NCBI GenBank assembly: GCA_041937175.2
Contig: CP166615.1
Coordinates: 672,001-736,000, forward strand
DNA: 64,000 nucleotides
Reading direction: 5' to 3'
Source of the DNA: Limnothrix sp. BL-A-16
GTDB taxonomy: Bacteria > Cyanobacteriota > Cyanobacteriia > CACIAM-69d
Part shown: one piece after another, positions 6,495-62,768 of the stretch
Numbering within the stretch: position 1 is the stretch's first letter
Layout of the letters: every line of letters starts with the position of its first letter
The notes under the pieces: generated by a model
Told to the model about the DNA's origin: nothing
Seen by the model: the letters and a program-made list of their open reading frames with translations, nothing else
Databases searched by the model: none
Program-made: the position numbers and the translations under genes

Positions 6495-6636
6495 GAGGTT
6501 GTCGTCATTTTTCGAGGTGAGACTGAAACGGTTGATCTTCCATGCCCCAATCGTCGTAACAAGATGCTCAAGCCCCTTGTCTCCCACGATCCGCTAACGG
6601 CAGATCTAGGGTTTTGTGCTCAATGACGACAGACCC
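6495..6636. mobile_element. MITE family B copy (142 bp)
   Basis: GAGGTTGTCGTCA...TGACGACAGACCC ends flanked by TA on both sides (CCTA|...|TAGG); degenerate central palindrome at 6560-6579. Confidence 0.8.
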
Positions 6637-6678
6637 TAGGCAATTTGTAGGGCTAACCGAGAAAGATTAATCGCAGGT

Positions 6679-7425
6679 TTAACTACCCAGTTGGAACCAA
6701 AACGATACCAAATCATGTTTACCCAAGGCGATCCGATCACCCGGCCGCAGCCGATGACGATTGCCCGGAGCCAAAAATAGCCCATTTACATAGGTTCCGT
6801 TGGCGCTGCCCGTGTCCTCCAAGTAATGGGCATCGCCCTCCACTCGAATGTCCGCATGGATTCGAGACACCACTTCCGCATGGGGAAATCCCGAAACATC
6901 AATGTCCGGCGGTACGCGATCGTTGGGTTTGCCCAAGTGAATGAGACTGATCTGCTCCGGCAACATCACAACCGCGCCGCTGTGGACATGCACCAATCGG
7001 GCGATCGTCCGTTGCAATTGCGTCACGGCTCCCGGGATGGGCGCTGCTTCTGGGGTGGTTCCCATCAAGGCCGTGGGCGGCTCGGCGGGATCGCCCAAAG
7101 ACCCGATCGGCTCCATCTCGGGACTGGCTGAAAACAGCGATGCCCCGATCGGCTGTGTGAGATCGGTGATCTCTTCATCACTGTCGGGGTGCGCTGGCGG
7201 CACAGGCAAGGGGGACGGCGCAGCGGCGGGGACGGGAGCCGGTAAAGGGGCGATCGAGGGGGCCGCCTGCAGGTTGTGGCCACATTGCCCGCAGAAGTTG
7301 GCATCACTCAGAACCGGCGCACCGCAACGGGGACAGCTTTGCAGGGTGGGAAGGGCCGTGAAGCAGGCTTCGCAAGTTACTGCATCATCGGGGTTGGCGT
7401 GATTGCAATTAGGACAATTAACCAT
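6679..7425 (-). CDS. double zinc-ribbon + FHA domain protein
   Basis: CPNC/CEAC/CPRC/CGQC N-terminus, Pro-rich linker, FHA motifs VSRIHA and GSANGT. Confidence 0.88.
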   Translation of the reverse strand: MVNCPNCNHANPDDAVTCEACFTALPTLQSCPRCGAPVLSDANFCGQCGHNLQAAPSIAPLPAPVPAAAPSPLPVPPAHPDSDEEITDLTQPIGASLFSASPEMEPIGSLGDPAEPPTALMGTTPEAAPIPGAVTQLQRTIARLVHVHSGAVVMLPEQISLIHLGKPNDRVPPDIDVSGFPHAEVVSRIHADIRVEGDAHYLEDTGSANGTYVNGLFLAPGNRHRLRPGDRIALGKHDLVSFWFQLGS

Positions 7426-7562
7426 GGAGCCGATCGCGCCTGGGCGCTTGCAAAGGAGCAAAGGAACCAAAATTCAGTCGTTCAGTCAATTTCGGACAAG
7501 TTCGGATGATTTCGGACTCCAGACCACCGGGCTTGAGCGCTGATGAACCGATCAGCCAGCGC

Positions 7563-14099: not shown

Positions 14100-14241
14100 A
14101 GGCGTTTCTTTATTTGGTTCAAAAACATAGATCTGCCGTTAGCGGATTGTGTGAGACAAGGGCCTTAAGCTCCTTGTTACGACGATTAGGGCATAGAAGA
14201 TCAACCGTTTCAGCATCACCTCGAAAAATGACGACACCCCC
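14100..14241. mobile_element. MITE family B copy, reverse orientation, one end decayed
   Basis: reverse complement of the 6495 copy; TGACGACACCCCC|TA right end; palindrome variant at 14157-14176. Confidence 0.75.
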
Positions 14242-15713: not shown

Positions 15714-15856
15714 GGGCATGTCGTCAAATCGCCCGAAACCCTGATTTCACCGTTGGCAGATCGTGGGGGGCAAGGGGCTTAAGCCCCTTGTCTAGGGCGG
15801 CTAGGGGATTGAAGATCAACCGTTTTTACTGGATCCCAGGGCATGACGACAGGCCC
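15714..15856. mobile_element. MITE family B copy (143 bp)
   Basis: TA|GGGCATGTCGTCA...TGACGACAGGCCC|TA; perfect palindrome at 15771-15790. Confidence 0.88.
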
Positions 15857-21221: not shown

Positions 21222-21359
21222 GGGCCTGTCGTCGTTGAGCACGAAACCCTAGATCTGTCGTTAGCGGATTGCGTGGGACAAGGGGCTTAAACCCTTGCCC
21301 CCACGACAATTGATGACTAATGCCTAGCCTGTACTGAAAGATACTTCTCAGACATCCTC
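21222..21359. mobile_element. chimeric MITE: family B arm joined to family A arm at the palindrome
   Basis: starts TA|GGGCCTGTCGTC (B TIR), palindrome variant at 21279-21297, ends CTTCTCAGACATCCTC|TAA (A TIR). Confidence 0.82.
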
Positions 21360-29648: not shown

Positions 29649-29651
29649 GGG

Positions 29652-38982: not shown

Positions 38983-39256
38983 TCCTGAAAGCTTAAAAGA
39001 TCACGAACCTAGAAAGTAATTCCCCTGGAAGATCGTGATTTTACGAAGGTGCAGGCAAGGGGCTTAAGCCCCTTGTCTTCTGGGGAACTGGGTTAGGATA
39101 ATTTGGGCTAAGCCTGAAGGCTTAACAGTCACGAACCTGGAAAATAATTCTCCTAAAAGATCGTGATCTTGGAAGATCATGATTTTACAAAGGTGCAGGC
39201 AAGGGGCTTAAGCCCCTTGTCTTCTGGGGAACTGGGTTAAGATAATTTGGGCTAAG
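38983..39256. repeat. imperfect tandem duplication, each unit carrying the 20-bp palindrome
   Basis: perfect palindromes at 39056 and 39200 with near-identical flanks. Confidence 0.88.
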
Positions 39257-44949: not shown

Positions 44950-45131
44950 ATCTGTCGAAAACTCTTGCGAAATCGTGAGGGGCAAGGGGCTTAAGCCCCT
45001 TGTCTGGTTGTGTTGAGAATGTCCACTAATGAAGAAATCCTGACAGCCTTGGCTTAAATCTGTCGAAAACTCTCGCGAAATCGTGAGGGGCAAGGGGCTT
45101 AAGCCCCTTGTCTGGTTGTGTTGAGAATGTC
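44921..45131. repeat. 108-bp-period tandem duplication of a gene 3' end plus palindrome
   Basis: 44921-45023 and 45029-45131 differ at one position as read. Confidence 0.93.
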
Positions 45132-45143
45132 TATGAATTTTGA

Positions 45144-46750: not shown

Positions 46751-46881
46751 GAGGTTGTTTGAAAAGCCAAAATTGCTACTCTCTACGCCCTAGCAATCAA
46801 TGTAGACAAGGGGCTTAAGCCCCTTGCCCCCAAGACCATTAGTGCTTGGCCCATGCCAAAAGATACTTTTCAAACATCCTC
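46751..46881. mobile_element. MITE family A copy (131 bp), uninterrupted
   Basis: TGA|GAGGTTGTTTGAAAAG...CTTTTCAAACATCCTC|TGA (3-bp TSD); perfect palindrome at 46807-46826. Confidence 0.9.
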
Positions 46882-46954
46882 TGATCAAAATTTTGAAATT
46901 GGTTTCCGATTGGGTTGCCTATTGTTTTTTGATCACTTGTTTTCTAAAAATCGG

Positions 46955-48796: not shown

Positions 48797-49540
48797 ATGA
48801 GTTCCCTTCTGGGTTTGGCCCCTTGGCTCACTCCCGCCTGGTTTCCCGCCAGCCATTGGATCATGCTGGGTCTGTTGGTGGGGTTTGCGGTTTTGCACAG
48901 CGGCCTGGCGGCCCTGCGGATCAAAGGCGAAGCCCTAATTGGTGCGCGGGCTTACCGGGTTTTGTTTGCCTTGGTCAGTTTGCCGGCTGCGGGATTGTTG
49001 ATTACCTACTTTTTCAACCATCGCTACGATGGGATCCAACTTTGGCAACTGCAAGGGGAAACCTGGGTGCAGCCGGTGGTTTGGATTTTGTCGGCCATTT
49101 CGTTTTTGTTCCTTTATCCGGCCACCTTTAACCTGTTGGAAGTGGCCGCTGTGGCCAAGCCTCAGGTTCACCTGTACGAAACGGGCATTATTCGGATCAC
49201 TCGCCATCCCCAGGCGATCGGGCAAATTATTTGGTGTGTGGGCCATGCCCTTTGGTTGGGAACCAGTTTCATGATGGTGACCTGTGCCGGTTTGATTGCC
49301 CATCACCTGTTTGCAATTTGGCACGGGGATCGGCGCTTGTATGGCCGATATGGGGATGCATTCTTAAAAGTCAAGGAACGCACATCAATCATTCCTTTTC
49401 GGGCAGTTTTTGACGGCCGCCAAACCCTTCAGCTTACGGAATTTTTGCGCCCGGCCTATGTGGGGGTCACGGCCTTTGTGTTGGGATTTTGGTGGGCCCA
49501 TCCGACGCTCATTCGGCTAACGGCTAGCGTAAACTGGTAG
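48797..49540 (+). CDS. NnrU-family membrane protein (15-cis-zeta-carotene isomerase-like)
   Basis: HSGLAALR, NHRYDG, YPATFNLLE, ITRHPQ, HGDRRL; start uncertain. Confidence 0.85.
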   Translation: MSSLLGLAPWLTPAWFPASHWIMLGLLVGFAVLHSGLAALRIKGEALIGARAYRVLFALVSLPAAGLLITYFFNHRYDGIQLWQLQGETWVQPVVWILSAISFLFLYPATFNLLEVAAVAKPQVHLYETGIIRITRHPQAIGQIIWCVGHALWLGTSFMMVTCAGLIAHHLFAIWHGDRRLYGRYGDAFLKVKERTSIIPFRAVFDGRQTLQLTEFLRPAYVGVTAFVLGFWWAHPTLIRLTASVNW

Positions 49541-49683
49541 GTATCGATCGCCGGGGACAGAAGACATTTCTAGATTGGTTTGCGTGATTAGCCTTCCTGA
49601 AATGTGCCAAATTCCCGGCGATTTTTGATTATTTTCGTTTATTTCTCGTCCAGCGTTTTTTAATATTTCTTTGCCGGTTCATA

Positions 49684-50034
49684 ATGCTAGATACCATGGA
49701 TGACTCCAGCTTCGATCGGGAAGTGCTACAAACGCCCGGTTTGGTGTTGGTGAACTTTTGGGCCCCTTGGTGTGGATTGTGTCGTTTGATTGATCCCCTC
49801 CTGAATAAGCTGCGATCGGACTGGGGTGAGTCGGTCAAGTTGGTTAATGTCAATGCAGACAGCAATCTGAGATTAGCCAATTCCTATCGCCTCACCACCC
49901 TGCCGACGGTGATTTTATTTCAGGATGGAAAACCAATTTTTCGGCTCGATCGCTTTGAAGGCAAAGAAGAGTTTTTGCGCCACCTAAACCGTGCTGTGAA
50001 TCAAGTGGAATTGTCTCGATCGCTTACGTCCTGA
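49684..50034 (+). CDS. trxC: atypical thioredoxin (WCGLC, TrxC-type)
   Basis: VLVNFWAPWCGLC active site, TLPT cis-Pro loop. Confidence 0.8.
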   Translation: MLDTMDDSSFDREVLQTPGLVLVNFWAPWCGLCRLIDPLLNKLRSDWGESVKLVNVNADSNLRLANSYRLTTLPTVILFQDGKPIFRLDRFEGKEEFLRHLNRAVNQVELSRSLTS

Positions 50035-50071
50035 GCAGTTTCCAAGCCGCCGTCGGTTCAAAGCCCCCTAA

Positions 50072-50347
50072 GAGGATGTCTGAAAAGCCAAAATCGATAC
50101 TCTGCACGCCTCATCGATCGACGGAGACAAGGGGCTTAGGGCCTGTCGTCATTATTTCGAGGTGATGCTGAAACAGTTGATCTTCCATGCCCTAGTCGTC
50201 GCAACAAGGGGCTTAAGCCCCTTGTCCCCCACGATCCGCTAACGGCAGAATCAGGGTTTCAGGCGATTTGACGACAGGCCCTAAGTCCCTTGCCCCCACG
50301 ACTATTGGTGCATTGCCCGTGCCAAAAGACACTTTTCAGACATCCTC
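50072..50347. mobile_element. MITE family A copy interrupted by a family B copy
   Basis: TAA|GAGGATGTCTGAAAAG...CTTTTCAGACATCCTC|TAA; 276 bp = 131 + 143 + 2. Confidence 0.92.
50139..50281. mobile_element. MITE family B copy (143 bp) nested in the palindrome of A
   Basis: CAAGGGGCTTA|GGGCCTGTCGTCA...TGACGACAGGCCC|TAAGTCCCTTG; own perfect palindrome at 50205-50224. Confidence 0.93.
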
Positions 50348-50458
50348 TAAAATCGCCGATTGTGCCCTGGCCGACTTGATTGGCGACTTGCGCGATCGGG
50401 GTGGGTCTGCTTTGCTGTTGGCGAACTCAATCCCGCATCAGTCTTTTACTGCCATTTT

Positions 50459-51604
50459 ATGGATTGGTATCGCGTCCTTCGTCCGTTGGTATTTTCGCCC
50501 TTGGCTCCTAGCCCCGAACGGGCCCACGACCAGGCCATGGAGTTGTTGCAGGGGTTGGCTCAGTTGCGGCGATCGGCCACGGGGCGATCGATGCTGGCCA
50601 ACCTGCGCCATTGGTTCACTGTCCAAACACCGGAACTGAGTCAAACCCTCTGGGGCTTGAAGTTCGAGAACCCCGTGGGTCTGGCGGCTGGCTTTGACAA
50701 AGATGGGGTAGCCGCCGGGGCTTGGGAGCAATTGGGGTTTGGTTTTGCGGAGTTGGGCACGGTGACGCTCCATTCCCAGCCGGGCAACCCGCAGCCTCGG
50801 CTATTTCGCCTGCTGCCCGATCGCGCCGTCCTGAACCGGATGGGATTCAATAACCAAGGGGCTGCGGCGCTGGCTGAACGGCTGGCCGCCCTTCGTCCTT
50901 CCCCCTGGGAAAATCCCAACATCCCGATCGGGGTCAACCTGGGTAAGTCCAAAATCACCGAATTGGAAGGGGCCGCCGCCGACTATTTGGGCAGCTTCCG
51001 GCTACTGAAGAACTGGGGCGATTATTTTGTGGTGAATGTGTCTTCGCCCAACACACCCGGCCTGCGATCGCTCCAGGATGCCGATCGACTTGGGGAAATT
51101 TTGGACAGCCTTCAGCAAGACAACCAAGGCCAGAAGCCCCTGTTGGTGAAAATTGCGCCGGATTTGGAATGGAGCGCGATCGATGACGTAGTTGGCCTGG
51201 CCCAGCGCTTTGGCCTAGCGGGGGTGATTGCCACCAACACCACCATCCGCCGCGACCAACTCCAAACCAAAACCCTGAAGCAGACGGGCAACCCGGTCAC
51301 CGCCGAAGCCGGGGGCATTAGTGGCCAACCCCTGCGCGATCGAGCCACGGAAGTCATTCACCATATCTATCGTCAAACCGCCGGCCAACTGCCCATCATT
51401 GGCGTGGGGGGAATTTTCAGCGCCGAGGATGCCTGGGACAAAATTGCCGCCGGGGCCAGCCTCGTGCAGGTCTACACCGGCTTTGTCTACGAGGGGCCAG
51501 GATTGCCCCGCCGCATTGCTGAGGGCTTGGCGGCCAAGCTGGCGGAGCGTGGCTGGTCATCCATTACCCAGGCGATCGGCTGTCACCATGGCTCCTTGGA
51601 TTGA
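50459..51604 (+). CDS. pyrD: quinone-dependent dihydroorotate dehydrogenase
   Basis: NPVGLAAGFDK, NRMGFNN, VNVSSPNTPGLR, VKIAPD, GGISG. Confidence 0.96.
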   Translation: MDWYRVLRPLVFSPLAPSPERAHDQAMELLQGLAQLRRSATGRSMLANLRHWFTVQTPELSQTLWGLKFENPVGLAAGFDKDGVAAGAWEQLGFGFAELGTVTLHSQPGNPQPRLFRLLPDRAVLNRMGFNNQGAAALAERLAALRPSPWENPNIPIGVNLGKSKITELEGAAADYLGSFRLLKNWGDYFVVNVSSPNTPGLRSLQDADRLGEILDSLQQDNQGQKPLLVKIAPDLEWSAIDDVVGLAQRFGLAGVIATNTTIRRDQLQTKTLKQTGNPVTAEAGGISGQPLRDRATEVIHHIYRQTAGQLPIIGVGGIFSAEDAWDKIAAGASLVQVYTGFVYEGPGLPRRIAEGLAAKLAERGWSSITQAIGCHHGSLD

Positions 51605-51751
51605 TCGGCTCGATCGATTTGATCGAATCGATCGATTCAATCAATTTGGTCAGATCGAATCGGGCAAAGGAAATTGGTCAAAACCATCACCGTTGCTACG
51701 GGAGAGCGATAGAATTCAACCTGTAAAACCCCTTTCATGAGTTTTTGACCA

Positions 51752-52144
51752 ATGAAAGCTTGGATGAAATCGATCGCCCGTCGCGCTAGCCTGCTGGTGG
51801 CTGCCGTCGTTCTGTTTGCCGGTGTGTTGTTCGCCGTGGCCCCCAGCGCCCTGGCCGAAACCCGCAGCGTGGAAATGACCAACCTGTTGAAGTTCTCCCC
51901 CGAAACCGTGACCGCCAAGGCTGGCGACACGATCGTCTGGTCGAACCCCGCTGGTTTGCCCCACAACGTGGTGTTGGAAGATGCCTCGAAGTTTGACGCG
52001 GCTGAAGTGAAGAAACTGGGCCAACTGCTGGGCAAAGGCGAAGCTGGCTTCACCCTGCCGAGCGACCTGCCTGCTGGCACCTACAACTACTACTGCGCAC
52101 CTCACCGGGGCGCTGGCATGGCTGGCAAGATTGTGGTTCAGTAA
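51752..52144 (+). CDS. petE: plastocyanin precursor
   Basis: signal peptide ending in ALA, PHNVV and YYCAPHRGAGM copper ligands. Confidence 0.9.
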   Translation: MKAWMKSIARRASLLVAAVVLFAGVLFAVAPSALAETRSVEMTNLLKFSPETVTAKAGDTIVWSNPAGLPHNVVLEDASKFDAAEVKKLGQLLGKGEAGFTLPSDLPAGTYNYYCAPHRGAGMAGKIVVQ

Positions 52145-52525
52145 CCACCGGCTCATTCATGAGGCTCACGACATTGGCTGACTACAGGTTGTGGCAAGCC
52201 GGGTAGACCAAAAAATTGCGATCGAGCGATCGTGGAAAACGCGATCACTGGCATAGCTCCTCAAGGGCTAATACCACGCTCAAAATCGCTAAAACTGACA
52301 GGATGATTGGGATCTAGGCTGATGGACTAGGAGCGACCTGGCTCCATCACTTGACAGGCTTTCGGTTGACAAGTTCTTGATTGATAGGTTTTTAATTCAC
52401 GAGGTTTCGGTTTTTTAGATCAGCTTAAGTTGGCTTCAGTCGGCTTTAGGTCAGCTTTAAATCAGCATTGTTTTTCCTTGCTTGAGACCAGTATTAATGC
52501 ATTTGAAGATCGGCGCGCAAATCAA

Positions 52526-53107
52526 ATGGCGAACGGAACGCTAACGGTATTAACAGGCCCCAGCGGCGTGGGCAAGGGCACATTGGTGAAGCTGTTACGC
52601 GAACGCCATCCCGATTTGTATTTATCCGTTTCTGCCACCACTCGATCGCCCCGTGATGGCGAAGTGGACGGGCAGGATTATTTTTTTGTGTCGCGCGATC
52701 GGTTCATGGCCATGGCCGAAGCCGGTGACCTGCTGGAGTGGGCCGAGTTTGCTGGGAACTGCTATGGAACCCCGCGCCAACCGATCGTGGAGCGTCTGGA
52801 TCGGGGCGAGCAGGTGTTGTTGGAAATTGAGTTAGAGGGAGCACGCCAGGTCAAGACCACGTTTCCCGAGGCGTTGCGGGTGTTTGTGTTGCCGCCGTCG
52901 CTGGATGAGTTGGAACGACGGTTGCGATCGCGTGGCCAAGATGCTGAAGCGGCGATCGAGCGGCGTTTGGCCCGGGCCCGCGAAGAGGTGGCCGCCGCCG
53001 ATGAATTTGATCAACAGGTGGTGAACGACGACCTAGACAAGGCGCTGATTCAACTGGAAGCGATTATGTTCTCCCCGATCGCAACCCCTGCGGCTGACGA
53101 AAGCTGA
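52526..53107 (+). CDS. gmk: guanylate kinase
   Basis: [30 protein letters not shown]. Confidence 0.96.
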
Positions 53108-53207
53108 TTAAACCCGGCCAAAGCCAGTTCCCAGACTTTTCGCGAACCGAAATCATGGGTTTTTGGGGCCTGTTTTCATTGCCCCAATCGTCGTAGCAAG
53201 GGGCTTG

Positions 53208-53385
53208 GGGCCTGTCGTCATTTCCATCTCCGTAGGGGTTGGGTCTCCCAACCCTAACCCGGGCGATCGCCACAACCCTGGCCAACACCAAGGATCACGG
53301 GAACTGGGTGGGGAAACCCCGCCCCTACGACTGATTGGTTTGAAGAACGAGGTCATCAGGGTTTGGGTGATTTGACGACGGGCCC
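53208..53385. mobile_element. family B-ended MITE (178 bp) with REPIN-like cargo
   Basis: GGGCCTGTCGTCA...TGACGACGGGCCC|TA; follows half-palindrome CAAGGGGCTT at 53197. Confidence 0.8.
53231..53329. repeat. REPIN-like inverted pair of GTAG-type REP sequences
   Basis: CGTAGGGGTTGGGTCTCCCAACCC ... GGGTGGGGAAACCCCGCCCCTACG. Confidence 0.75.
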
Positions 53386-54776
53386 TAATCTTCCGGGAGG
53401 TCATCCCGTTCCAGGTCATAGAGCACCTTCTCCAAATACCAATCCTCATCCATGTTGGGATAATGTTCGCGGGCCCGATCGAGCAGGGTTTGCGCGATCG
53501 CTTCCTGGCCGCCAACCCGCCCCAACAGCCGCTGCCAAAGGGGATTTTGGGCTTTTTGGGGCAACCCCGGAGACAAGTTCACCGGCTGTTGCAACATCTT
53601 GAGCTGTTCCAAGGTGGTGCGATAGCGTTCCCAGTCGTTGCGATCGCAAAACAAGCTGGCGGCGGTTTGGTAGTCCTCGATCGCCTGCTTCAGGTTTTCT
53701 TGGCGAACGGCCGCTTGGGCCCGCAACAGCAAAATGGCGGGTCGATCGCCCCCCAACTCCAACGCTCGGTCATAGTCCCCGATCGCCGCGCTGTAATTTC
53801 CCAGTGCCTGTTGGGCATCGCCCCGAGCCATCCACAGCAGCGGATTTTGGTCATCTTGGGCCAAAGCTTGGTCTAAATCTGCCAACGCCCCCGCCCGATC
53901 GCCCATTTCCAGCCTGGCCCTGGCTCGGTAACGGTAGAGCGTGGCATCAGCCCCACCCCCTTGAATCGCCCGGTTGCAATCCGCGATCGCCCCTTGCCAG
54001 TTGCCTTGCTTAATGCGCACCGCTGCCCGACAAGCCAGCGCCTTTGGATCCTGTGGATCCAACTTCAGGGCCCAATCTAACTCCGCGATCGCCCCCTGCA
54101 CATCTCCCGACTCCGCCCGGTTCAAAGCCTGGGCATAAAAGGCTTCTGGGCGCATCATTGCGCCCACGGGTGCGCCCGCATTGGGTGTACCTGTATTGGA
54201 CGTGCCCGTACTGGACGTGCCCGTGGTGGTGGCCTGCAAACTGGCCAACGTGGGCGGTGCATTAAATGGTGGCAACGGTTCCGTCAGCACGGGCGGACTG
54301 GCGTTGGGTTGTAGCTGTTTCAGTAAATCCAAACATTGCCGGGCCCCCACGGGATCCCGGCGATCGAGATAAAGCTCCGTTGCCTTGCGTAGGCTGACGA
54401 TCGCGGCGGCCAGATCTCCTCGTTTGCGCAGGGCCGTTGCCTTCAGTTGGTGGGCCGCTGGATTTTGAGGATTGAGCTGAAGCAGGCTGGCTAAATCATC
54501 CAACGCCCCATCAAAGTGATCCAAAACCACACGAACCAAGGCTCGGCCATAGAGAGCCGGTTGATAATCGTTGGCCAGTTCGATCGCCCGTGAATAGTCA
54601 AAGGCGGCCTGTTGCAACCGGCCCATATCAAAATAGGCCAAACCCCGCCGGTAATAGGCTTCAGCCCAATGGGGATCCGCCGCAATGGCTTGGTCAAAGC
54701 AAGCGATCGCCGCTGCTTGGTCGCCTTGCTTTGCCTGCTCGATGCCCTCCCAAAAGGCCGCATTATCAGTCATCAC
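53385..54776 (-). CDS. tetratricopeptide repeat protein
   Basis: repeated AYYRRG / A..DY.RAL TPR motifs in two clusters. Confidence 0.9.
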   Translation of the reverse strand: MMTDNAAFWEGIEQAKQGDQAAAIACFDQAIAADPHWAEAYYRRGLAYFDMGRLQQAAFDYSRAIELANDYQPALYGRALVRVVLDHFDGALDDLASLLQLNPQNPAAHQLKATALRKRGDLAAAIVSLRKATELYLDRRDPVGARQCLDLLKQLQPNASPPVLTEPLPPFNAPPTLASLQATTTGTSSTGTSNTGTPNAGAPVGAMMRPEAFYAQALNRAESGDVQGAIAELDWALKLDPQDPKALACRAAVRIKQGNWQGAIADCNRAIQGGGADATLYRYRARARLEMGDRAGALADLDQALAQDDQNPLLWMARGDAQQALGNYSAAIGDYDRALELGGDRPAILLLRAQAAVRQENLKQAIEDYQTAASLFCDRNDWERYRTTLEQLKMLQQPVNLSPGLPQKAQNPLWQRLLGRVGGQEAIAQTLLDRAREHYPNMDEDWYLEKVLYDLERDDLPED

Positions 54777-55492
54777 GCCGCCTCGCTGATCACATACCGA
54801 CCGCCATCATTAGGGCAATCCTAGCAATTGGTAGAGAGCTTGCGGTGATTTGTATCAATCCATACGGATTTTGAAGCAAACTTCCTCGAATTTCCGCCTC
54901 CAATTCCTCATCAATAGGGCTAATCATCGACAGCCCTTGATGAAGACCGGGCCAACTCACTCATAATGAATGCGGAGCTGTGGATTGCTGGTTAATCCTG
55001 CCGCGCTGCGCCTGGCCACTCGGCTTGGTGGTTGCTGCAAGCTGTCTACCGCTCGATTCATCCGACAGTTGATCCAGCAGTCCATCCGGTAATCCAGTTG
55101 GCGATTCAATTCGGCGATTCAATGGGGATTCAATAACGAGCACCTCAGTTCGTGCCTCTAGTCGGAGATCTGGAGATCTAGTACATCGGGAAATGCATCA
55201 GGCAACCCATCAGGGTCTTGGGATGAATGGGTTAGGATCAGGTGATCGCGCGGCTCTGTGCGGCGATAAACAGCCCTAGCACTGTTTGAGTACTGATTTT
55301 GGATATTAATTTGGATATTAGATTTGGATATTAGTCATGATCAACTAGCCCCAAGCTGCCCGCCTACTCCTTAGCGATCGCTGGGGACGTTGCTCATGAC
55401 CAGCCAGCCCCATCGGCCCAAACACTGCATCACGGCTGCCGAAAACGATTCAAACGATTTCACTGATTCAGGCGTTTGCTTTTTCCTATCCT

Positions 55493-57823
55493 GTGCTTGA
55501 TTCTCACCAAATTATTCCCGCTGTCCGTTCCCTGTCCCTGGGCGAAGCTGGCTACCTGGCGGCAACGCAAGCGCTGGTGATTTCAGCGGACAAAACTATC
55601 GCAGACATGGTGCAGCATCTTCAGGGAATTCACCCATCGCAGATTGCTGAATCACAATTGATTGTGCTGGTGTTGCCGACGGCCCAGGGCGAGAAGCCGA
55701 TCGGGGTGCTGACGGTGAGCGAGCTGGCCTGGGCCGTGGCGACCCAGCGGGAATTGGCCACCTCTGCCCTCATGAGCCTGGCTAGACCGCCCGTGACCTT
55801 GCCCGCTCAGACCAATTTGCAAACCGCTTGGGACACGTTTCAGGCTCAAAAATGCTCCTGGTTAGTGTTGCTAGAGGAGCAGGGAGTTTTTGCGGGGGTC
55901 ATTTCCCGCACTGCCTTGTTGGAAGCGGTGGTGGAACGGGGCGGCCTGGCTGGTCAGTCGTCAGAATCAACCCCAGAATCAGACTATTCCCCGCTAATTT
56001 GTTCGCAGCCGGTGCATGGCTACTGGTCCGCTGGTTTGACTCATTTCCTGGGACAAGTGGGCGATGGGGTTGCCCAAGTGGTGAACGATGGGGTTTGGGA
56101 ATGGAACCTAACGACCGATCGCCTGGTGTTGTCGCCTCGGTGGAAGGCCCTGTTGGGCTATGGCCCCTCGGAGTTGGCCGATGAGTGGGCCACTTGGGAA
56201 CAGCGGTTGATCGAGGAAGATCGATCGACCCTGAGCAATTTGCGGCAGGCGGTGCAGGTGAACCAGGCCAACTGCATTCAACTGATTCAGCGGTTTGAGC
56301 ACCGCAACCAAAATATTGTTCATGGCCTGGTGCGGGCGGTGCGCCACAGCGCGGTCAATGGGGATGATGTCCTTTGGGGAGTTCTGACGGACATTAGCGA
56401 GTTGGCCCGTACCCAACAGGAACTGGCGGATATTCTCGACAGCTCGATCGATGGGATTGCTGCCCTACGCACGATCCGCAACGGAGCCGGGCAAATTGTG
56501 GATTTTTTGTGGACGGCGGTGAACTCCTCCGCAGAAATGGTGCTGGGGCGATCGCGCAATCAACTGCTGAACCGACAACTGCTCGATCAAGTACCCCTTG
56601 TGCGCCAAGACGGCCTCTTTGAAGCCTATGTGCGGGTGGTGGAAACGGGCCAGGCCTTCAGTCGATCGCTCCGAGTCACCCAATCGGATGGCCGCGATGC
56701 TTGGTTGCAACTCACGGCGGTGAAATTAGGCGATGGTCTGACCCTGACTTTTCGGGATGTGACCCAAACCAAGCAGGCCGAACAGGTGCTTCAGGAAACC
56801 AATCAACAGCTAGAGCGTCGCATTGAAGAACTGAAGTTTCGCAACCGCGAAATGGCCCTGCTGAGTGAAATGATTGATTTTCTTCAGGTTTGCGTGACCG
56901 TGGAGGAAGCCTACACGGCCGTGGCCGATCTGGTGCAAGCGCTGTTTCCCGGCTGTTCCGGGGCCCTGTTTACCCTGGAATCGACCCGCGTGGCCCTGGA
57001 GGCGGTGGCCACCTGGGGCCCTGACCCGATCGGGGAAACCCTGTTCTATCCCGATGATTGCTGGGCCCTGAGTCGTGGCCGCATCCATTGGGCCGAACAC
57101 AAACACACGGGGTTGCTCTGTCGCCATGCCCACCCCCTGGGCCCCCAAGCGGAATCCCTTTGTTTGCCGATGATGGCCCAAAGCGAAACCCTGGGACTGC
57201 TGTATCTTTGCACCCCGCAACACGATTCCCTTTCGGCTCCAAAACAACAGCTCGCCCGCACCGTGGCGGAGCAGGTGGCCTTGGCCATTTCCAACCTGCG
57301 ATTGCGGGAAACCCTGCAACAACAAAGCATCCGCGACCCGCTCACCGGCCTCTATAACCGACGCTATTTGGAGGAAGCCCTGGAGCAAGCGGTTTGTCGG
57401 GCCCGGCGCGATCGCTCCCCGATCGGGGCGATCATTTTGGACATTGACCATTTCAAACAATTCAACGACACCTTTGGCCACGATGCCGGAGACTTGGTGT
57501 TGCAGGAAGTGGCGCAATTTCTGCAAAGTCGCATCCGAGGCTCCGATATTGCCTGTCGCTATGGTGGCGAAGAAATGACGCTGATTTTGCCCGGAGCCAC
57601 CCTCGAAGAAACGGTGCAACGGGCGGAGGTGATGTGCCAAGAGCTGAAGTATTTGTCCTTGCGTCACGGAGGGCAAACCCTGGGCGCAATCACGGCCTCC
57701 TTTGGAGTGGCCAGTTTTCCGCAACATGCGGTTACTGTGGCGACCCTTTTGCAAGCGGCCGATGCCGCTCTCTATCAAGCGAAATGGGCCGGGCGAGATC
57801 GAGTGGTGGTTGCCCAAAGCTAA
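55493..57823 (+). CDS. diguanylate cyclase (CBS-like, PAS, PAS, GAF, GGDEF)
   Basis: DPLTGLYNRR, DIDHFKQFND, RGSD I-site, GGEEM, ADAALY. Confidence 0.92.
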   Translation: MLDSHQIIPAVRSLSLGEAGYLAATQALVISADKTIADMVQHLQGIHPSQIAESQLIVLVLPTAQGEKPIGVLTVSELAWAVATQRELATSALMSLARPPVTLPAQTNLQTAWDTFQAQKCSWLVLLEEQGVFAGVISRTALLEAVVERGGLAGQSSESTPESDYSPLICSQPVHGYWSAGLTHFLGQVGDGVAQVVNDGVWEWNLTTDRLVLSPRWKALLGYGPSELADEWATWEQRLIEEDRSTLSNLRQAVQVNQANCIQLIQRFEHRNQNIVHGLVRAVRHSAVNGDDVLWGVLTDISELARTQQELADILDSSIDGIAALRTIRNGAGQIVDFLWTAVNSSAEMVLGRSRNQLLNRQLLDQVPLVRQDGLFEAYVRVVETGQAFSRSLRVTQSDGRDAWLQLTAVKLGDGLTLTFRDVTQTKQAEQVLQETNQQLERRIEELKFRNREMALLSEMIDFLQVCVTVEEAYTAVADLVQALFPGCSGALFTLESTRVALEAVATWGPDPIGETLFYPDDCWALSRGRIHWAEHKHTGLLCRHAHPLGPQAESLCLPMMAQSETLGLLYLCTPQHDSLSAPKQQLARTVAEQVALAISNLRLRETLQQQSIRDPLTGLYNRRYLEEALEQAVCRARRDRSPIGAIILDIDHFKQFNDTFGHDAGDLVLQEVAQFLQSRIRGSDIACRYGGEEMTLILPGATLEETVQRAEVMCQELKYLSLRHGGQTLGAITASFGVASFPQHAVTVATLLQAADAALYQAKWAGRDRVVVAQS

Positions 57824-57859
57824 AAGCTGCAACTCAAAACTCTCATCGGATCGCAAATT

Positions 57860-58180
57860 TCAATAGAAAATTGCCAGCCAAATGGTTTCCACATCCGGGT
57901 CAGTCCAAGCAACCCGGTGTTTCTGGTGAGCGGGAATATTGAAATAGTCACCAGGCTTTAGCTCAACTACGCCCTCCGGTAGTTCCAAATGGGCATGACC
58001 TTGCAGCACCAAAACCCACTCGGATTGCGCTTGGTCATACCAAAAGTCGGGATCCGATCGATGTCCTTTCGATAAAATTCGCTCAATTTTGATCTCGGGC
58101 GTTTGCAAAATCGTTTCAAAGATTTCCTCGGGCAGCTCGATCGGGAGATTTTGGAAGAGGTTATTGGTAAAGGAGGTCAT
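57860..58180 (-). CDS. cupin domain protein
   Basis: IERILSKGH, WYDQ...EWVLVLQG, IPAHQKHRV. Confidence 0.85.
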   Translation of the reverse strand: MTSFTNNLFQNLPIELPEEIFETILQTPEIKIERILSKGHRSDPDFWYDQAQSEWVLVLQGHAHLELPEGVVELKPGDYFNIPAHQKHRVAWTDPDVETIWLAIFY

Positions 58181-58315
58181 TTTGAGATCTGCTATATTTT
58201 TCAATGTTCAGAATTGAGAAATTTCGTTCAGTTCAAGAACTCGATCTGAAATCTGAAATAAATCTCTAAAAATCTGAAATGAATCTCTAAATTTATGAGA
58301 ATTGATGAATCGCGG

Positions 58316-59335
58316 CTACATTAAAAACTCAGCTAGGGTTTTCAGATGGTCACTGGCGGCCGATACTGCGATCGGCAATCGATATCCTCCACCATGACAA
58401 GACAGCACTGGACAATGAAAACGATGCGCAGCTTTTAAGGTGATCTTCGTTAGTTGCACAAAGTCTTCATTCGTCCAATCGGTTGTATCTTCTCCGCAAT
58501 CCTTTCGATGTGCGTCATATCCCGAGAAGATAGCGATTAAATCGGGTTTCCAAGGTAAATGATTTAACTTGTCCCGGAATACTTCAATGCTGCTCTGTCC
58601 TTCATAAAATTCACCACCCAAGCCATCTTCTGCAAGAGCAGCGCGTGGAAAATTCTTAGGAATAACTGGAATATTGCAATGACCCACGCGATCGGCTTGT
58701 TCCGTAGTTCCCCACTGAAGGCCAGAAGCCTTGGCCATGTAAATATCTACAGTACTATGAATACTAATACAATAAACAGATGAGTCATGGCTGAAAATTT
58801 CTTGAGTGCCATCACCATGATGAATGTCCCAGTCAATGACAACGACTTTGGCAAAACCATTCAGTTGGGCATAGCGTACTGCTGCCGCTAAAGGATTAAG
58901 TAAACAATATCCATGACCCCATTCACGATGGGCATGGTGACCAACCATACTAAAGCAATAAGCTCGCTGAAGAATGCCCTGTTTCATCCGATCAATGGCC
59001 TCTAACATACCGCCCAAACCATATAGATAGCCTGGAATTGCATACTCAAGTCCTTGACAGTCAGAACCAATGGCTGGTAACGAAAGACTGGTCTGATCCA
59101 ATGGGCGATCGAGCGCTTTCAGAATTAGCTTTTTCAGATAGGCCTGACTATGAACACTGGCATAGTCTGTTAACTGAGCTTTCCTAAGGGGCAAGGACTG
59201 ATATTGTGAACAGATTTGAGCAAGGGCTTGGCAAACTTGCCGATAATAAGGTAATGAATATCTGCCGAATGTAATATCTTCGAGTGGCTTGGACAGGTTG
59301 AACGATTGAAGATGAAGATAGGTTGCGAAGCTCAT
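58316..59335 (-). CDS. histone deacetylase-family amidohydrolase
   Basis: GHHAH, GYCLLN, DWDIHHGDGTQ, SGYDAH, GGGY. Confidence 0.88.
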   Translation of the reverse strand: MSFATYLHLQSFNLSKPLEDITFGRYSLPYYRQVCQALAQICSQYQSLPLRKAQLTDYASVHSQAYLKKLILKALDRPLDQTSLSLPAIGSDCQGLEYAIPGYLYGLGGMLEAIDRMKQGILQRAYCFSMVGHHAHREWGHGYCLLNPLAAAVRYAQLNGFAKVVVIDWDIHHGDGTQEIFSHDSSVYCISIHSTVDIYMAKASGLQWGTTEQADRVGHCNIPVIPKNFPRAALAEDGLGGEFYEGQSSIEVFRDKLNHLPWKPDLIAIFSGYDAHRKDCGEDTTDWTNEDFVQLTKITLKAAHRFHCPVLSCHGGGYRLPIAVSAASDHLKTLAEFLM

Positions 59336-59799
59336 CTTTGTTTATGATTGATGAACGTGGTTAACGAATAATGTAAGCCAATAAAATAAATTGAATAAAT
59401 TTTGAATTTGAAATTAAGATTAAAAAATAAAATTAGTCTAAAATTTGAAGAGTCAATATTAAACAGAGTCAATATTAAACATTGATTGACTTCTACTAAA
59501 TCAAAAAAGCTAAATCATGATCCTGATAGATCACTTGGTCTAACCTGATTACCCTTGTGATTTAACAGCAGACTATAGAGATGGTAGCCTACTTGCCTTG
59601 AGCTTTGGGCAAATATTACGGGCTTCTAGGGATTAAACGCAGTCATTGCTCGATGGTTATGTTAAAAATAACTACGGCGAGTCTGGGATGAGCCAATGAT
59701 TTTTGTGCCCAAGACCATCAATAATTTGCCAAGCTGGCTCAAATTGTTCAATTTGTCAGCAATTTTTCGCTAGTCCATCGTAGTTAGGGGCAATCCACC

Positions 59800-62460
59800 A
59801 TGTCGCGGAACCGGTTTTTGGAAGCATTTTGGGGTTTGAGTGCAGATGAAGCGCGATCGTTTCAACTTCCCGGAGCCAAGCCCCACTATCTTCCCGATCG
59901 CCCGGTGCGGACACAACATGTGGCCCTTGATTTGGTGTTGGACATTCCCAATTGTCGGGTAGCGGGAACCTGCTCGATCGACCTGTTGCCCGTGCAAGAT
60001 GGGGTCGATCGCCTGGAATTAGATGCGGTGGCTATGCAAATTCAAGGGGTTCGGGTGGGCGAAGCTGCCCAGCAATTTGAATATGATGGCGAGCAGTTAG
60101 CGATCACTCTGTCGGAGCCAACCCAGCGCGATCGTGCCTTCAAATTAGTCATTGACTATCAATTAGATCGTCCCCAACGCGGCATTTACTTTGTGCAGCC
60201 CACGGCGGACTATCCCAATAAAAATGTGCAGGTTTGGACCCAGGGAGAGGATGAAGATTCTCGCTTCTGGTTCCCCTGTTTTGATTTTCCAGGACAACTC
60301 TGCACCTCGGAAATGCAGGTGCAAGTGCCCAATGGTTTGCTCGTACTCTCGAATGGAGAGCTGATTAATCAGACAACCAAGGGCAAAACCACCACTTACC
60401 ATTGGCATCAAAAACAGCCTCATCCCATTTATCTGTTTACTCTGGCCGTGGGAGATTTTGCAGAGATTAAAGATGAGTGGCGCGGCCGACCTGTGAGCTA
60501 TTACACCGCTCAGAATCGGGCTTCGGAAGCCCAGCGCACCATGGGCAAAACGCCCGCGATGATGGATTTTCTCAGCGAAAAATTTGACTATGACTATCCC
60601 TATAGCAAGTATGGGCAAGCTTGCATGGAGGATTTCATTTTTGGAGGCATGGAAAATACCTCCATGACCCTGTTAACCGATCGTTGCTTGTTAGATGAAC
60701 GAGCCGCGATCGATAATCGCAATTCTGAAGCTTTGGTGGTTCATGAGCTGACGCACCAGTGGTTTGGTGATTTGCTGGTCATTAAGCATTGGTCCCATGC
60801 TTGGCTGAAAGAAGGCATGGCCACCTATTCCGAAACCCTCTGGACTGAGCATGAATATGGATCGGAGGAAGCAGCCTATTATCGCTTGGGTGATCAGCGG
60901 GCCTATTTAGGGGAAGATCGGCGGCGCTACCGACGGCCCATGGTGACCCATGTTTATCGCGAGCCGATCGAACTCTACGATTGCCATACCTATGAAAAGG
61001 GCGGCTGTGTTTATCACATGCTGCATCAGGAATTGGGCGATGATTTGTTTTGGAAATCGATTCAAACATTTGTCAAAAATCACGCCTTTGGTGCTATCGA
61101 AACGATCGACCTCTTGCGAGCGATCGAACAGGCAACGGGTCGAAATTTGTTGTTTCTGTTTGATCAGTACGTGTTTCGGGGAGGTCATCCTGATTTCAAA
61201 GTTGCCTATAGCTGGGATGGAGAAAATAAGATTGCAAAATTGACCGTGACCCAAACCCAAGCCAAGGAAGGGGATTTGGAGACGCTGTTTAATTTGAAAA
61301 TTCCAGTGTCCTTTGCGACCCTCAGCAGTGAAGCAGCCAGCCCTGCTCCGAAATCGAAGAAGTCGAAAAAAGTAGCGGCTCCCGCCCCTAAGGTCACGTT
61401 CAAAACCGTGAAGCTGGCCATTCACGATCGGGAACAAACCTTCTACTTACCCTTGGAGCAAAAACCAGATTTCGTCAGTTTTGATCCGGGGAATCATTGG
61501 CTGAAAACGGTGGAGCTAGATTATCCGCTGCCGGAATTGAAAGCCCAATTGCAGTTTGATCCTGACCCGATCGCCCGAGTATTTGCGGCGAAAGCGATCG
61601 CCCAGAAAGGCACGCTGGAGGCCTTGAATGCTTTGGCCCAATCCCTGACGAGCGATCGCTTTTGGGGGGTGCGTGCCGAGGTGGCAGAAAATCTGGCCAC
61701 CATCGGTTTAGATGGGGTGTTGGCTGCCCTGAAGCCGGGGTTGAAGGATTCGGATCCCCAAGTGCGTCGATCGGTGATTCAGGCCATTGCCTCCCTCAAA
61801 ACCGAAGCAGCTTATTCAGCGCTGGAGTCGATCGCCAAGAAGGGCGATGCCAGTTACTACACCGAGTCGGCGGCCTTGGCGGCCATCGGGTCGATCGCGG
61901 CGGCCCAGCCGGCCTTGGTCGATCGGGCGATTGCGTTGCTCAAATCGGCCCTGAAAAAGCGATCGGGCTGGAATGAAGTCGTTCGTTCCGGGGCCGTCAG
62001 CGGCCTAAGCGCCCTCAAGACCTCTGCCGCCGCCCTGGATTTGGTGCTGGAAACCAGCCAACCGGGCATTCCCCAGGCCCTACGCTTAGCGGCGATTCGG
62101 GCCCTGGGCGCGGTGGCTAACGGCCAAGAAGCCCCAGCGGTCGATCGGGTGTTGAATGCACTGCAAACCTATGCCCGCGAGAGCTTTTTCCTCACCCAAG
62201 TGGCGGTGGTGGTTGCCCTAGGACAAATGGAAACTACCAAGGCGATCGGGATTTTGCAAGGGTTGGCCAGCCAGTCGCCCGATGGCCGCGTGCGCCGGAT
62301 GGCGGAAGAGGCCGTGAAGCGAGTGCAGCACAATGCGGGTTCCGATCGCGCCTTGGATCAGGTGCGCCAAGAGCTAGATCAACTGAAAAAAGACAACCAA
62401 ACCCTGCGATCGCGCCTGGAAGACTTGGAGGCAAAATCAAAACCGCAACCCGCGAGCTAG
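59800..62460 (+). CDS. pepN: M1 aminopeptidase with HEAT repeats and C-terminal coiled coil
   Basis: GGMEN, HELTHQWFG...WLKEG, YEKG. Confidence 0.92.
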   Translation: MSRNRFLEAFWGLSADEARSFQLPGAKPHYLPDRPVRTQHVALDLVLDIPNCRVAGTCSIDLLPVQDGVDRLELDAVAMQIQGVRVGEAAQQFEYDGEQLAITLSEPTQRDRAFKLVIDYQLDRPQRGIYFVQPTADYPNKNVQVWTQGEDEDSRFWFPCFDFPGQLCTSEMQVQVPNGLLVLSNGELINQTTKGKTTTYHWHQKQPHPIYLFTLAVGDFAEIKDEWRGRPVSYYTAQNRASEAQRTMGKTPAMMDFLSEKFDYDYPYSKYGQACMEDFIFGGMENTSMTLLTDRCLLDERAAIDNRNSEALVVHELTHQWFGDLLVIKHWSHAWLKEGMATYSETLWTEHEYGSEEAAYYRLGDQRAYLGEDRRRYRRPMVTHVYREPIELYDCHTYEKGGCVYHMLHQELGDDLFWKSIQTFVKNHAFGAIETIDLLRAIEQATGRNLLFLFDQYVFRGGHPDFKVAYSWDGENKIAKLTVTQTQAKEGDLETLFNLKIPVSFATLSSEAASPAPKSKKSKKVAAPAPKVTFKTVKLAIHDREQTFYLPLEQKPDFVSFDPGNHWLKTVELDYPLPELKAQLQFDPDPIARVFAAKAIAQKGTLEALNALAQSLTSDRFWGVRAEVAENLATIGLDGVLAALKPGLKDSDPQVRRSVIQAIASLKTEAAYSALESIAKKGDASYYTESAALAAIGSIAAAQPALVDRAIALLKSALKKRSGWNEVVRSGAVSGLSALKTSAAALDLVLETSQPGIPQALRLAAIRALGAVANGQEAPAVDRVLNALQTYARESFFLTQVAVVVALGQMETTKAIGILQGLASQSPDGRVRRMAEEAVKRVQHNAGSDRALDQVRQELDQLKKDNQTLRSRLEDLEAKSKPQPAS

Positions 62461-62768
62461 GGCCCGTCGTCATTTCCTGGGATTCAATGAGAACGGTTGA
62501 TCTTCCATCCCCTAACCGCCCTAAACAAGGGGCTTAAGCCCCTTGTCCCCCACGATCTGCTAACGGCAGATCATGGGTTGCGGGTTAAACGATGACCAGT
62601 CCTCAGCCCCTTGTCCCCCACGATCTGCTAACGGCAGATCATGGGTTGCGGGTTAAACGATGACCAGTCCTCAGCCCCTTGTCCTCCACGATCTGCTAAC
62701 GGCAGATCATGGGTTGCGGGTTAAACGATGACAAGCCCTAAGCCTCTTGCCCCCACGATCTGCCAACA
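62460..62768. mobile_element. MITE family B copy followed by reiterated right arms
   Basis: TA|GGGCCCGTCGTCA start; palindrome at 62526-62545; 68-bp units at 62537, 62605, 62673, partial unit at 62741. Confidence 0.85.

Follow-up and report, generated by a model that had tools for sequence, protein, structure and literature searches.

The palindromes of REP/REPIN-RAYT systems are short, extragenic and present at high copy number, with enrichment between convergent genes, and the mechanism of REP dispersal is there termed unresolved (Bertels and Rainey, 2011, PMC3116915). Several insertion sequences (ISs), namely IS1397, ISKpn1, IS621, ISPsy8, ISRm22 and ISNm1106, target REPs; they insert at the symmetry axis of the extragenic palindrome with a short duplication, and their specificity has been ascribed to the transposase (Tobes and Pareja, 2006, PMC1525189; Delihas, 2011, PMC3184786). 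The IS5 family is already represented among them by ISNm1106, with a looser association (PMC1525189; PMC3184786). In Coxiella burnetii, QMITE2 is a 150-190-bp MITE containing a REP that is an insertion hot spot, accounting for 20 of 21 IS1111 copies, and short TIR-less copies of QMITE2 resemble REPs (Wachter et al., 2018, PMC5896051). GTAG-15 dimers of Anabaena variabilis lie inside a long TATAGGA...TCCTATA palindrome that was never found without the REP (Di Nocera et al., 2013, PMC3733652); we read this flanking palindrome as a REP-carrying MITE comparable to families D and E here. Lastly, described cyanobacterial MITEs include Nezha and the MaeMITEs (via Delihas, 2011, PMC3184786; Minnick, 2024, PMC10969869).

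We analysed a 64-kb stretch of the Limnothrix sp. BL-A-16 genome (the window), in which a perfect 20-base palindrome, P, recurs within and outside MITEs. Like REP and REPIN sequences, P is a short, extragenic, high-copy palindrome with enrichment between convergent genes; unlike them, it is perfectly palindromic, occurs as a singlet and lacks both a constant GTAG tag and an adjoining RAYT gene, and the observed gains of P come within DDE MITEs. As with REP-targeting ISs, insertion occurs at the palindrome axis with a duplication, but those ISs do not carry their target, whereas here a non-autonomous derivative both carries and spreads it. The resemblance to QMITE2 is that a REP inside a MITE serves as an IS target; the differences are that unrelated IS1111 inserts into QMITE2, whereas here the MITE's own ends and a cognate IS5 target the cargo, and that one palindrome is common to three unrelated TIR families. 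The Anabaena case is also cyanobacterial and likewise places REP cargo within a pair of inverted repeats, but it is a passing mention of another REP, not termed a MITE and with no transposase link or self-targeting. Like Nezha and the MaeMITEs, the elements described here are bounded by TIRs, fall in the 130-170-bp range, have empty counterparts in relatives and are matched by a cognate IS in another species, whereas the excerpted accounts of PMC3184786 and PMC10969869 include no shared central palindrome or self-targeting. Each ingredient is known, and the combination seems undescribed. The original prediction did not recognise the arrangement as described, which stands for the full combination but not for its parts, since a REP within a MITE as an IS target and the Anabaena REP dimers are both in print. 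Judged from titles and abstract openings, the literature we searched contains no self-targeting MITE with a shared palindrome. The exact 20-mer was unreported in that search; the family lists of Di Nocera 2013 and Elhai 2008 may already include P.

Copies of P in the window and the genome

P has 326 perfect copies in the whole genome. All eight perfect copies predicted in the window were confirmed, where 0.00 copies are expected by chance (100 shuffles). The elements containing P, or associated with it, are as follows, with their state in a 93%-identical relative (G002) that shows empty sites.

6495..6636, plus strand: family B MITE, 142 bp, TA duplication, variant allele P2 at 6560-6579 (three mismatches to P); clean empty site in G002
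14100..14241, minus strand: family B MITE, one TIR decayed, P variant at 14157-14176 (two mismatches); missing from G002
15714..15856, minus strand: family B MITE whose P (15771-15790) is perfect; the orthologous G002 site holds a B too, but its P allele and arm subtype differ
21222..21359, unstranded: chimera of B arm, imperfect P (a 19-nt variant at 21279) and A arm, located at the right-hand breakpoint of a 74.5-kb inversion identified by synteny with G002
39056..39075, unstranded: solo P, copy 1 of a 144-bp tandem duplication; single copy in G002
39200..39219, unstranded: solo P, copy 2 of the 144-bp tandem duplication
44983..45002, unstranded: solo P with B-like core flanks in a 108-bp tandem duplication (44914-45129); single copy in G002
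45091..45110, unstranded: solo P, copy 2 of the 108-bp duplication
46751..46881, plus strand: family A MITE, 131 bp, 16-bp TIR, TGA duplication, P exactly central (46807-46826); common to G002
50072..50347, plus strand: family A MITE, TAA duplication, P split by a nested B into halves at 50128-50138 and 50282-50292, with TA duplicated; nest missing in G002, which has one TAA
50139..50281, plus strand: the nested family B MITE, in the central TA of the A element's P; own P at 50205-50224
53165..53207, plus strand: remnant B-like arm, then the left half of P (53197-53207)
53208..53385, plus strand: family D MITE with B-type TIRs and a GTAG REP doublet, inserted at the P half-site
62460..62806, plus strand: family B MITE carrying P (62526-62545) and interrupting the TAG stop codon of the upstream gene at its TA; downstream part made of 68-bp tandem repeats, each a half-P plus one arm; absent in G002

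The copies at 39 kb and 45 kb, predicted to lack TIRs, are indeed solo copies, and lie within tandem duplications. All 13 copies in the window are, as proposed, intergenic, in that they lie between Pfam-supported or longest ORFs and are overlapped by shadow ORFs alone; the rule is not strict genome-wide, where, with ORFs called crudely, 385 of 424 copies are outside ORFs and 39 inside, many of the latter in short ORFs or at ORF ends. Similarly, the claim that P is much better conserved than the arms around it is true of the inner arms but not of the TIRs, to which P is about equal: among elements chosen by their arms alone, identity to consensus is 0.92-0.95 for P, 0.78-0.89 for inner arms and 0.84-0.95 for TIRs. 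Between orthologues in this genome and G002, 24 of 540 bases in P differ, compared with 202 of 1409 in the adjoining 30 nt and with a mean of 71 differences in P under a truncated null.

P has the form of a REP, that is, a 20-40-bp extragenic high-copy palindrome. It is mostly a singlet in this genome, with 129 single-P clusters, four P-P clusters and one P per MITE in the remainder, such that singlets dominate over the inverted doublets that are the main form of REPINs. The tag next to P is GTAA or GTAG in B and C arms and GNAGA in A; overall, purines alone are shared at positions -1 to -3. The P2 allele occurs in A, B and C and is confined to this genus (3 of 41 genomes); its perfect-palindrome partner has no copies. 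Cyanobacteria reportedly also have SDR repeats, the description of which is credited to Elhai 2008. We ruled out a classical terminator, as only 17 of the 326 copies of P have a T-run. An Rfam scan of the window matched SRP RNA only, with no match on the repeats, and no recurrent gene family beyond common housekeeping families adjoins P at 95 foreign loci.

MITE families centred on P and their cognate transposases

As predicted, P lies at the centre of two MITE families with different TIRs and target duplications, A (TNA) and B (TA). A third P-centred family, C, has no copy in the window and was missed in the original prediction, as was family D, which has B-type TIRs and, instead of P, a GTAG-tagged REP doublet (10 copies in this genome). 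That the 21.2-kb copy is an A/B chimera at an inversion breakpoint likewise went unnoticed there. Families A, B and C are short, non-coding, TIR-bounded and multi-copy, with consensus lengths of 131, 142 and 142 bp; arms define 96 A, 104 B and 26 C elements centred on P, which is near the middle of each (flanks of 56/55, 57/65 and 68/54 bp). This placement supports the proposal that P is cargo of DDE-mobilised MITEs.

A search for transposases bounded by A or B TIRs, suggested with that proposal, found IS5 elements in other genomes. One genome, G003, has a complete, single-copy, 861-bp IS5 element with B-type TIRs, itself centred in a P, and in metagenomes A-type TIRs bound 858-916-bp IS5 elements with TNA flanks. 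The A cognate scores 232.6 bits against NF033580 in the one ORF tested, and the B cognate 136.6 and 139.7 in two frames (cut-off 110); the domains matched in these transposases are DUF4096 and DDE_Tnp_1. From their TNA/single-ORF and TA/two-ORF traits, the elements may belong to the IS1031 and IS427 subgroups, respectively. Given that tblastn of the Limnothrix sp. BL-A-16 genome with both cognate proteins detected no intact transposase bounded by A- or B-type ends, we infer the mover of both families from other genomes; a B-type IS remnant is present at C1:1.151 Mb. Among resident candidates, a long A TIR pair proved to be two separate MITEs, two long B TIR pairs were set aside on the tblastn result, and the IS5 at C1:3.867 Mb, a 904-bp IS and a 1-kb IS630-type element have different TIRs. 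A DNA search of 301 genomes with the G003 IS matched itself alone. In other cyanobacteria, about nine loci of related IS5 elements have ends that can be resolved, and none of them is in P. For C, no cognate element was found in 151 genomes or viral contigs; one exact C TIR pattern occurs in this genome and G002 only, among the 151 genomes, and its single viral match is inside an unrelated ORF. Viral contigs contained few matches to P or to the ends of A, B and C, with no cognate element among those checked.

IS ends bearing REP-like hairpins are general in cyanobacteria. P itself lies between matched inverted words, of several TIR types, at 18 of 128 foreign loci, compared with 1.5% in flank-swapped controls; the other 110 lack strong flanking inverted words.

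Insertion and recombination at P

The prediction that P acts as an insertion target applies to B-type ends, but not to A and C. Among 105 complete B elements, 25 interrupt a P at the TA in its centre, as opposed to none of 103 A elements and none of 27 C elements; in 21 of the 25 nests, the TIR is joined at that TA and the TA is duplicated. With 27 one-sided and 16 no-duplication cases excluded, 25 of 62 B insertions (40%; 37 are at clean non-P sites) are in P, against 1.2% (TA) or 2.8% (YTAR) expected (p<1e-22), so B insertions are far more frequent in P than at YTAR sites at large, the comparison that had been proposed. A half-P flanks 142 of 382 B ends, 3 of 312 A ends and none of 81 C ends, and is found beside one B end more often than the other (104/231 vs 38/151). 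Five orthologous pairs (C1:756785, 817634, 1649053, 1744682 and 1631754) have P intact in one genome and split in the other when this genome is compared with G002. B thus shows the fixed-point palindrome insertion, duplication and enrichment over background that characterise REP-targeting ISs. Each new copy of P seeds a new landing site, as proposed, for B-type ends, but not for insertion of A or C.

Of the 10 family D copies in this genome, about six, judged by eye, sit within or next to P halves, as do most of the seven in G002 tiles; together with the G003 element, family D points to the transposase as the source of target specificity. A matrix built from the 37 non-P B sites is P-like and predicts 67% of insertions in P, compared with the 40% observed; decayed P copies may be among those sites, and the matrix over-predicts. 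The targeting of P therefore appears to fit a plain sequence preference of the transposase, and since this matrix predicts insertions in P and D targets P while lacking it, no special recognition of a hairpin would be needed.

Comparison with G002 bears out the expected presence/absence polymorphism: of 13 elements compared and read by eye, nine have a clean empty site with one target copy, two more have one with a single substitution, and two are unresolved. None of the outcomes named beforehand as refuting the prediction occurred. The suggestion that P is a recombination point is supported by reciprocal A/B chimeras joined at P at the ends of the 74.5-kb inversion in this genome relative to G002 (21222..21359 in the window, and C1:618671-618807), in which the TA and TAA duplications are swapped and whose sites are both empty in G002. 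Through crossovers at P, arms from different families become joined and the chromosome can be inverted; this was shown once, for an inversion whose P junctions are imperfect.

Proposed capture and spread of P

We propose that P is a REP-like hairpin captured inside several unrelated ISs, between their ends, and that DDE transposases, of the IS5 family for A and B, would move the resulting 130-145-bp A, B and C MITEs in trans, spreading P. The IS5 transposase acting on B ends would duplicate TA in a symmetric 14-bp target, roughly RRGGCY-TA-RGCCYY. Given that the centre of P matches this target perfectly, any P, whether solo or within an A, B or C element, would be a preferred site for B, D and the autonomous element; the counts and orthologous pairs establish P as such a site. 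Nests would then shrink or expand via repeated P halves, or form by one-ended transfer, generating arm arrays, and either process would pass P alleles between families. These processes may underlie the arm arrays and allele sharing, although nest collapse alone does not account for the half-P bias toward one B end. Solo copies are probably eroded MITEs with the hairpin retained, plausibly as a 3' RNA stem-loop. As for how P came to lie between IS ends, our guess would be template switching at hairpins during excision-gap repair. Capture, spread by DDE MITEs, self-targeting by B and proneness to recombination together make up what we regard as the best explanation of the whole, and a probable one.

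An unlikely alternative is that P is an independently mobile REP that owes its spread to an HUH nuclease, be it a RAYT or another, and that MITEs are just some of its hosts. The exact 20-mer is indeed found in 14 of 41 cyanobacterial genomes, and at no fewer than 116 loci in unrelated contexts, non-cyanobacterial records among them; the 129 solo clusters, the REP-like look of loop and compensatory stem variants, the GTAA or GTAG ahead of P in some arms, and the 53.2-kb locus, where in both this genome and G002 the same arm position precedes P and another GTAG REP, all fit such mobility. However, the Y1 or RAYT gene flanked by P that was to be sought with the original prediction was not found in this genome or at the surveyed Y1 and P loci: no copy of P lies closer than 1.5 kb to the sole Y1 gene of the genome, whose score of 56 bits falls short of the RAYT cut-off of 80, one of 30 Y1 loci in genomes with P has a copy of it, with three mismatches, several RAYT-like loci bear other REPs, and a 14-seed Y1 profile has no match in P loci. 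Moreover, P is a singlet rather than a doublet, and 71 compared loci include no precise solo-P indel.

Somewhat less probable still is that targeting by the B transposase is structure-specific, through recognition of an extruded P hairpin or of a host protein bound to P, with a central hairpin helping the ends of short MITEs to meet. This would fit the position of P near the centre of A, B and C, the stable folding of P-bearing elements (z ~ -4 to -5.5) and the hairpins in 38 of 60 A-ended MITEs in other genomes, often ~55 nt from one end. However, linear sequence preference already covers the enrichment, part of the folding score follows from the TIRs and P themselves, eight A, two B and four C clusters have no recognisable P, and 22 of the 60 foreign A-ended MITEs lack a perfect 7-bp hairpin; a fixed 55-nt offset is weak as a rule, since many examples are related copies. 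It is very improbable that nests arise by homologous recombination between carried and resident P with no transposase targeting, as about seven chimeras joined at P and P alleles common to several families might suggest, because the TA is duplicated at the TIR in most nests, A and C bear P yet never nest in it, and D and the autonomous IS5, which lack P, do so, largely refuting the idea.

This genome offers a testable alternative to RAYT-driven REP spread, in which REP-like hairpins travel inside DDE-mobilised MITEs, and it harbours a small parasite whose cargo is the site most favoured by its own transposase, such that insertions fall in already-tolerated intergenic sites that are also recombination points. 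The G003 IS5 transposase and its 14-bp symmetric target would be a reagent for testing both REP hitch-hiking and self-targeting. More tentatively, and with some doubt, capture of REP hairpins could be a general, RAYT-independent route of spread, with P as an adopted functional module and a feedback loop wherever P matches the target. If so, the P hairpin would have been adopted by many IS-end types in cyanobacteria and beyond, either as a host-selected RNA or DNA hairpin or as an aid to end synapsis; the element would seed its own safe landing sites, with nesting and one-ended transfer homogenising the hairpin across families; and the loop would also sustain an additional parasite, an IS110 directed to where a MITE end meets P.

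At a practical level, these repeats interrupt short-read contigs and produce shadow ORFs. Contigs from four public runs, when placed on 44001-63500, break off at the repeats.

Palindrome P and its three MITE families

The window carries the 20-bp perfect palindrome P (CAAGGGGCTTAAGCCCCTTG) at 13 sites, each where the original prediction had placed it: eight perfect and two near copies, a 19-nt variant at 21279, a split copy at 50128 and a half copy at 53197. None is expected by chance, and all 13 lie between genes, as predicted. The host, a HIP1-rich cyanobacterium (4.56 Mb, 55% G+C), has 326 perfect and 424 near-perfect copies genome-wide, with none on its small contig. The exact 20-mer is found in 14 of 41 related genomes and at 116 or more loci in the species collection, mostly, among the matches listed, in cyanobacteria, with some in Anaerolineae and others; we estimate ~0.5 chance matches in the 596 Gb. 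Clustering the 848 flanks of 424 P copies gave three arm pairs, confirming that P is the centre of MITE families with differing terminal inverted repeats (TIRs) and target duplications, and adding a third family, C, to the two predicted.

MITE families centred on P
Family A: 131 bp; 16-bp TIR beginning GAGGATG; TNA duplication; P at 56/55
Family B: 142 bp; TIR beginning GGGCCTGTCGTCA; TA duplication; P at 57/65
Family C: ~142 bp; TIR beginning GTAGCG; TA duplicated within CTAG; zero copies in the window

The genome's 557 repeat clusters comprise 88 clean A, 58 clean B, 28 clean C and 129 lone P, the remainder being partial, nested or tandem. By crude ORF calls, convergent spacers hold clusters more often than divergent ones do, both for MITE-type clusters (in 14.1% vs 5.7% of spacers) and for solo P, copies without MITE ends (5.9% vs 2.8%).

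P was predicted to be better conserved than the arms around it. In elements picked by their arms (96 A, 104 B, 26 C), this is so for the inner arms (identity to consensus 0.92-0.95 for P vs 0.78-0.89) but not for the TIRs (0.84-0.95). Orthologous P copies differ at 24/540 bases vs 202/1409 in adjacent sequence, a flank figure possibly inflated by arm replacement; a null incorporating the mismatch cut-offs gives a mean of 71 differences. The few differences between orthologous copies argue that P is kept, probably by selection or homogenisation. A role as a classical terminator was rejected, since a T-run accompanies just 17/326 copies.

Recent mobility and the targeting of P by B-type ends

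We conclude that the system is real, has recently been mobile between species, and targets itself where the ends are of B type. We compared ~0.68 Mb (15% of the genome) of a syntenic, ~93%-identical relative, G002. Both flanks of 71 clusters could be mapped there, and 34 of these sites, counted by eye, are without any modelled element, bearing out the predicted presence/absence polymorphism; one of the 34 carries family D, which has B-type ends without P. Thirteen elements were checked against G002, of which nine had a clean single target, two were off by one base and two were unresolved. Of the window's elements, G002 lacks four (6.5, 14.1, 50.1 and 62.5 kb) and shares two (15.7 and 46.8 kb); the solo P at 39 kb and that at 45 kb each occur once in G002 and as a tandem duplication in the host. 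At two orthologous spacers (positions 1525264 and 1806472 of the main contig, C1), different MITE families lie within a few tens of bases in the two genomes, which suggests insertion hot spots.

When an insertion splits P at its central TA, half of P is left on either side. Such halves flank 142/382 B ends, 3/312 A ends and 0/81 C ends. Of the 105 B elements that are complete, P halves border 25 on both sides (TA being exactly duplicated in 21) and 27 on one side; the other 53 have none, and 37 of these show a TA duplication. B insertions were predicted to be enriched in P over other potential sites; indeed, 25/62 clean B insertions (40%) are in P, which makes up 1.2% of the TA sites in non-coding DNA and 2.8% of the YTAR sites (p<1e-22). 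For A and C the corresponding counts are 0/103 and 0/27. At five loci P is intact in one of the two genomes and split in the other (two B-in-A nests, a solo P entered by B and, in G002, two insertions of D), giving the order of events directly.

A symmetric matrix (~RRGGCY-TA-RGCCYY) built from 37 non-P B sites, a small training set that may include decayed P copies, predicted 67% of insertions to fall in P; a linear sequence preference suffices to explain the targeting. Family D carries a GTAG REP doublet in place of P, and ~6 of its 10 host copies, by eye, adjoin P halves, including one in the window:

53208-53385: family D element, adjoining a P half

In another genome, G003, the centre of a P is occupied by an IS5 element that is complete (861 bp, two frames) and has B-type ends. 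In other cyanobacteria, ~9 related IS5 loci whose ends could be resolved lie outside P, with TA duplicated in CTAG-like sites. The targeting thus resides in the ends and transposase, for which P is a perfect fit.

At window 62458-62460 a B element has split a TAG stop codon at its TA; the gene ending there is unharmed because the element's first G restores the stop. A variant allele, P2, has three changes in one arm and is missing the central TA, and is predicted to be immune to B insertion. Some B-end/TA junctions are occupied by a 1.34-kb IS110 (342 aa, NF033542 over cut-off; at least four host copies), whose 5' non-coding part contains short words matching both sides of the junction, read by eye as putative bridge-RNA guides:

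C1:438.7k: IS110 at B-end/TA junction
C1:2154.2k (locus L060:398-1721): IS110 at B-end/TA junction
C1:3000.1k: IS110 at B-end/TA junction
C1:3394.4k: IS110 at B-end/TA junction

Cognate elements and recombination at P

The predicted cognate transposases exist outside the host: for B, the IS5 element of G003, with only a remnant left in the host; for A, 858-916-bp metagenome elements bounded by the A-type TIR, of which five retain a 267-288-residue frame intact; the single ORF tested belongs to the IS5 family. They may fall in the IS1031 (A) and IS427 (B) subgroups, and elements of this kind were presumably the mover in the host. A search of 151 genomes and viral contigs found no cognate element for family C.

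P was also predicted to act as a recombination point. The host differs from G002 by a 74.5-kb inversion with reciprocal chimeras at its breakpoints:

window 21222-21359: breakpoint chimera, B arm-P-A arm
C1:618671-618807: reciprocal breakpoint chimera

The TA and TAA duplications are swapped between them, G002 is empty at both sites, and P is imperfect at each of the two junctions. TIR-mismatched chimeras number ~7 genome-wide, rearrangement having been checked for the inversion pair only.

Arm arrays like the 68-bp repeat at window 62.5 kb are common, and could arise by nest collapse or one-ended transfer. They are lopsided, with half-P at 104/231 ends of one B arm vs 38/151 of the other, an asymmetry that favours an end-specific step. 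P2 (68 copies, confined to this genus) is found in all three families, and A and B carry it in either orientation; P has therefore moved between families, plausibly by nesting followed by collapse.

REP-like cargo between IS ends

P is REP-like in size, place and variation, yet a Y1/RAYT gene flanked by P was sought and not found: the only Y1 gene of the host lacks a neighbouring P and scores under the RAYT cut-off, 1/30 other Y1 loci has P (a weak copy 0.8 kb away), and a small Y1 profile gave zero matches in P loci. No precise solo-P gain was seen between the host and G002. This Y1 gene of the host ends, on its 3' side, in several tandem copies of a ~0.5-kb unit that extend into the downstream DNA (L001:2160-3342; C1:1.722-1.724 Mb), and a RAYT-like gene in genome G021 is interrupted by an A-ended MITE with another hairpin pair (L009:1733-1966).

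Matched inverted 12-mers bracket P at 18/128 loci in foreign genomes, vs 1.5% of flank-swapped pairs; by eye, eight or more TIR types are represented. Sixty distinct A-ended metagenome MITEs have other cargo, including a perfect hairpin of at least 7 bp in 38 and P in none, and host families D and E have IS ends with hairpins other than P. IS ends with REP-like cargo are thus a recurring design, and with P in B the cargo is at the same time the target; we infer that P was itself first captured between IS ends. Family E (14 copies, 165-173 bp, e.g. C1:369480 and 1763181) has a different hairpin doublet and the TIRs of a resident 904-bp IS (nine full-length TIR pairs), to which its homology is, by eye, apparently confined.

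The original prediction held the arrangement to be undescribed. A literature search, with supplements and Elhai 2008 outside it, matched neither the exact 20-mer nor the combination, and shared cores are absent from the examined text of a MITE census (PMC11602168). The components, by contrast, are in print: REPs are described as targets of insertion sequences, with insertions at the symmetry axis among the cases (PMC1525189; PMC3184786), and a REP-holding MITE is like the P MITEs in its cargo, although there a different IS does the targeting (PMC5896051; PMC10969869). REP dimers within a longer palindrome, described in Anabaena (PMC3733652), rank among known relatives, and the dispersal of REPINs has been termed unresolved (PMC3116915).

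The window also contains:

132-1349: TnpB-like gene (OrfB_IS605, Cas12f1-like TNB, HTH) of an IS605-family element
25142-25238 (-): bacterial small SRP RNA
46947-47083: 15-bp AT-rich tandem repeat where a LysR gene ends, next to the 46.8-kb A element
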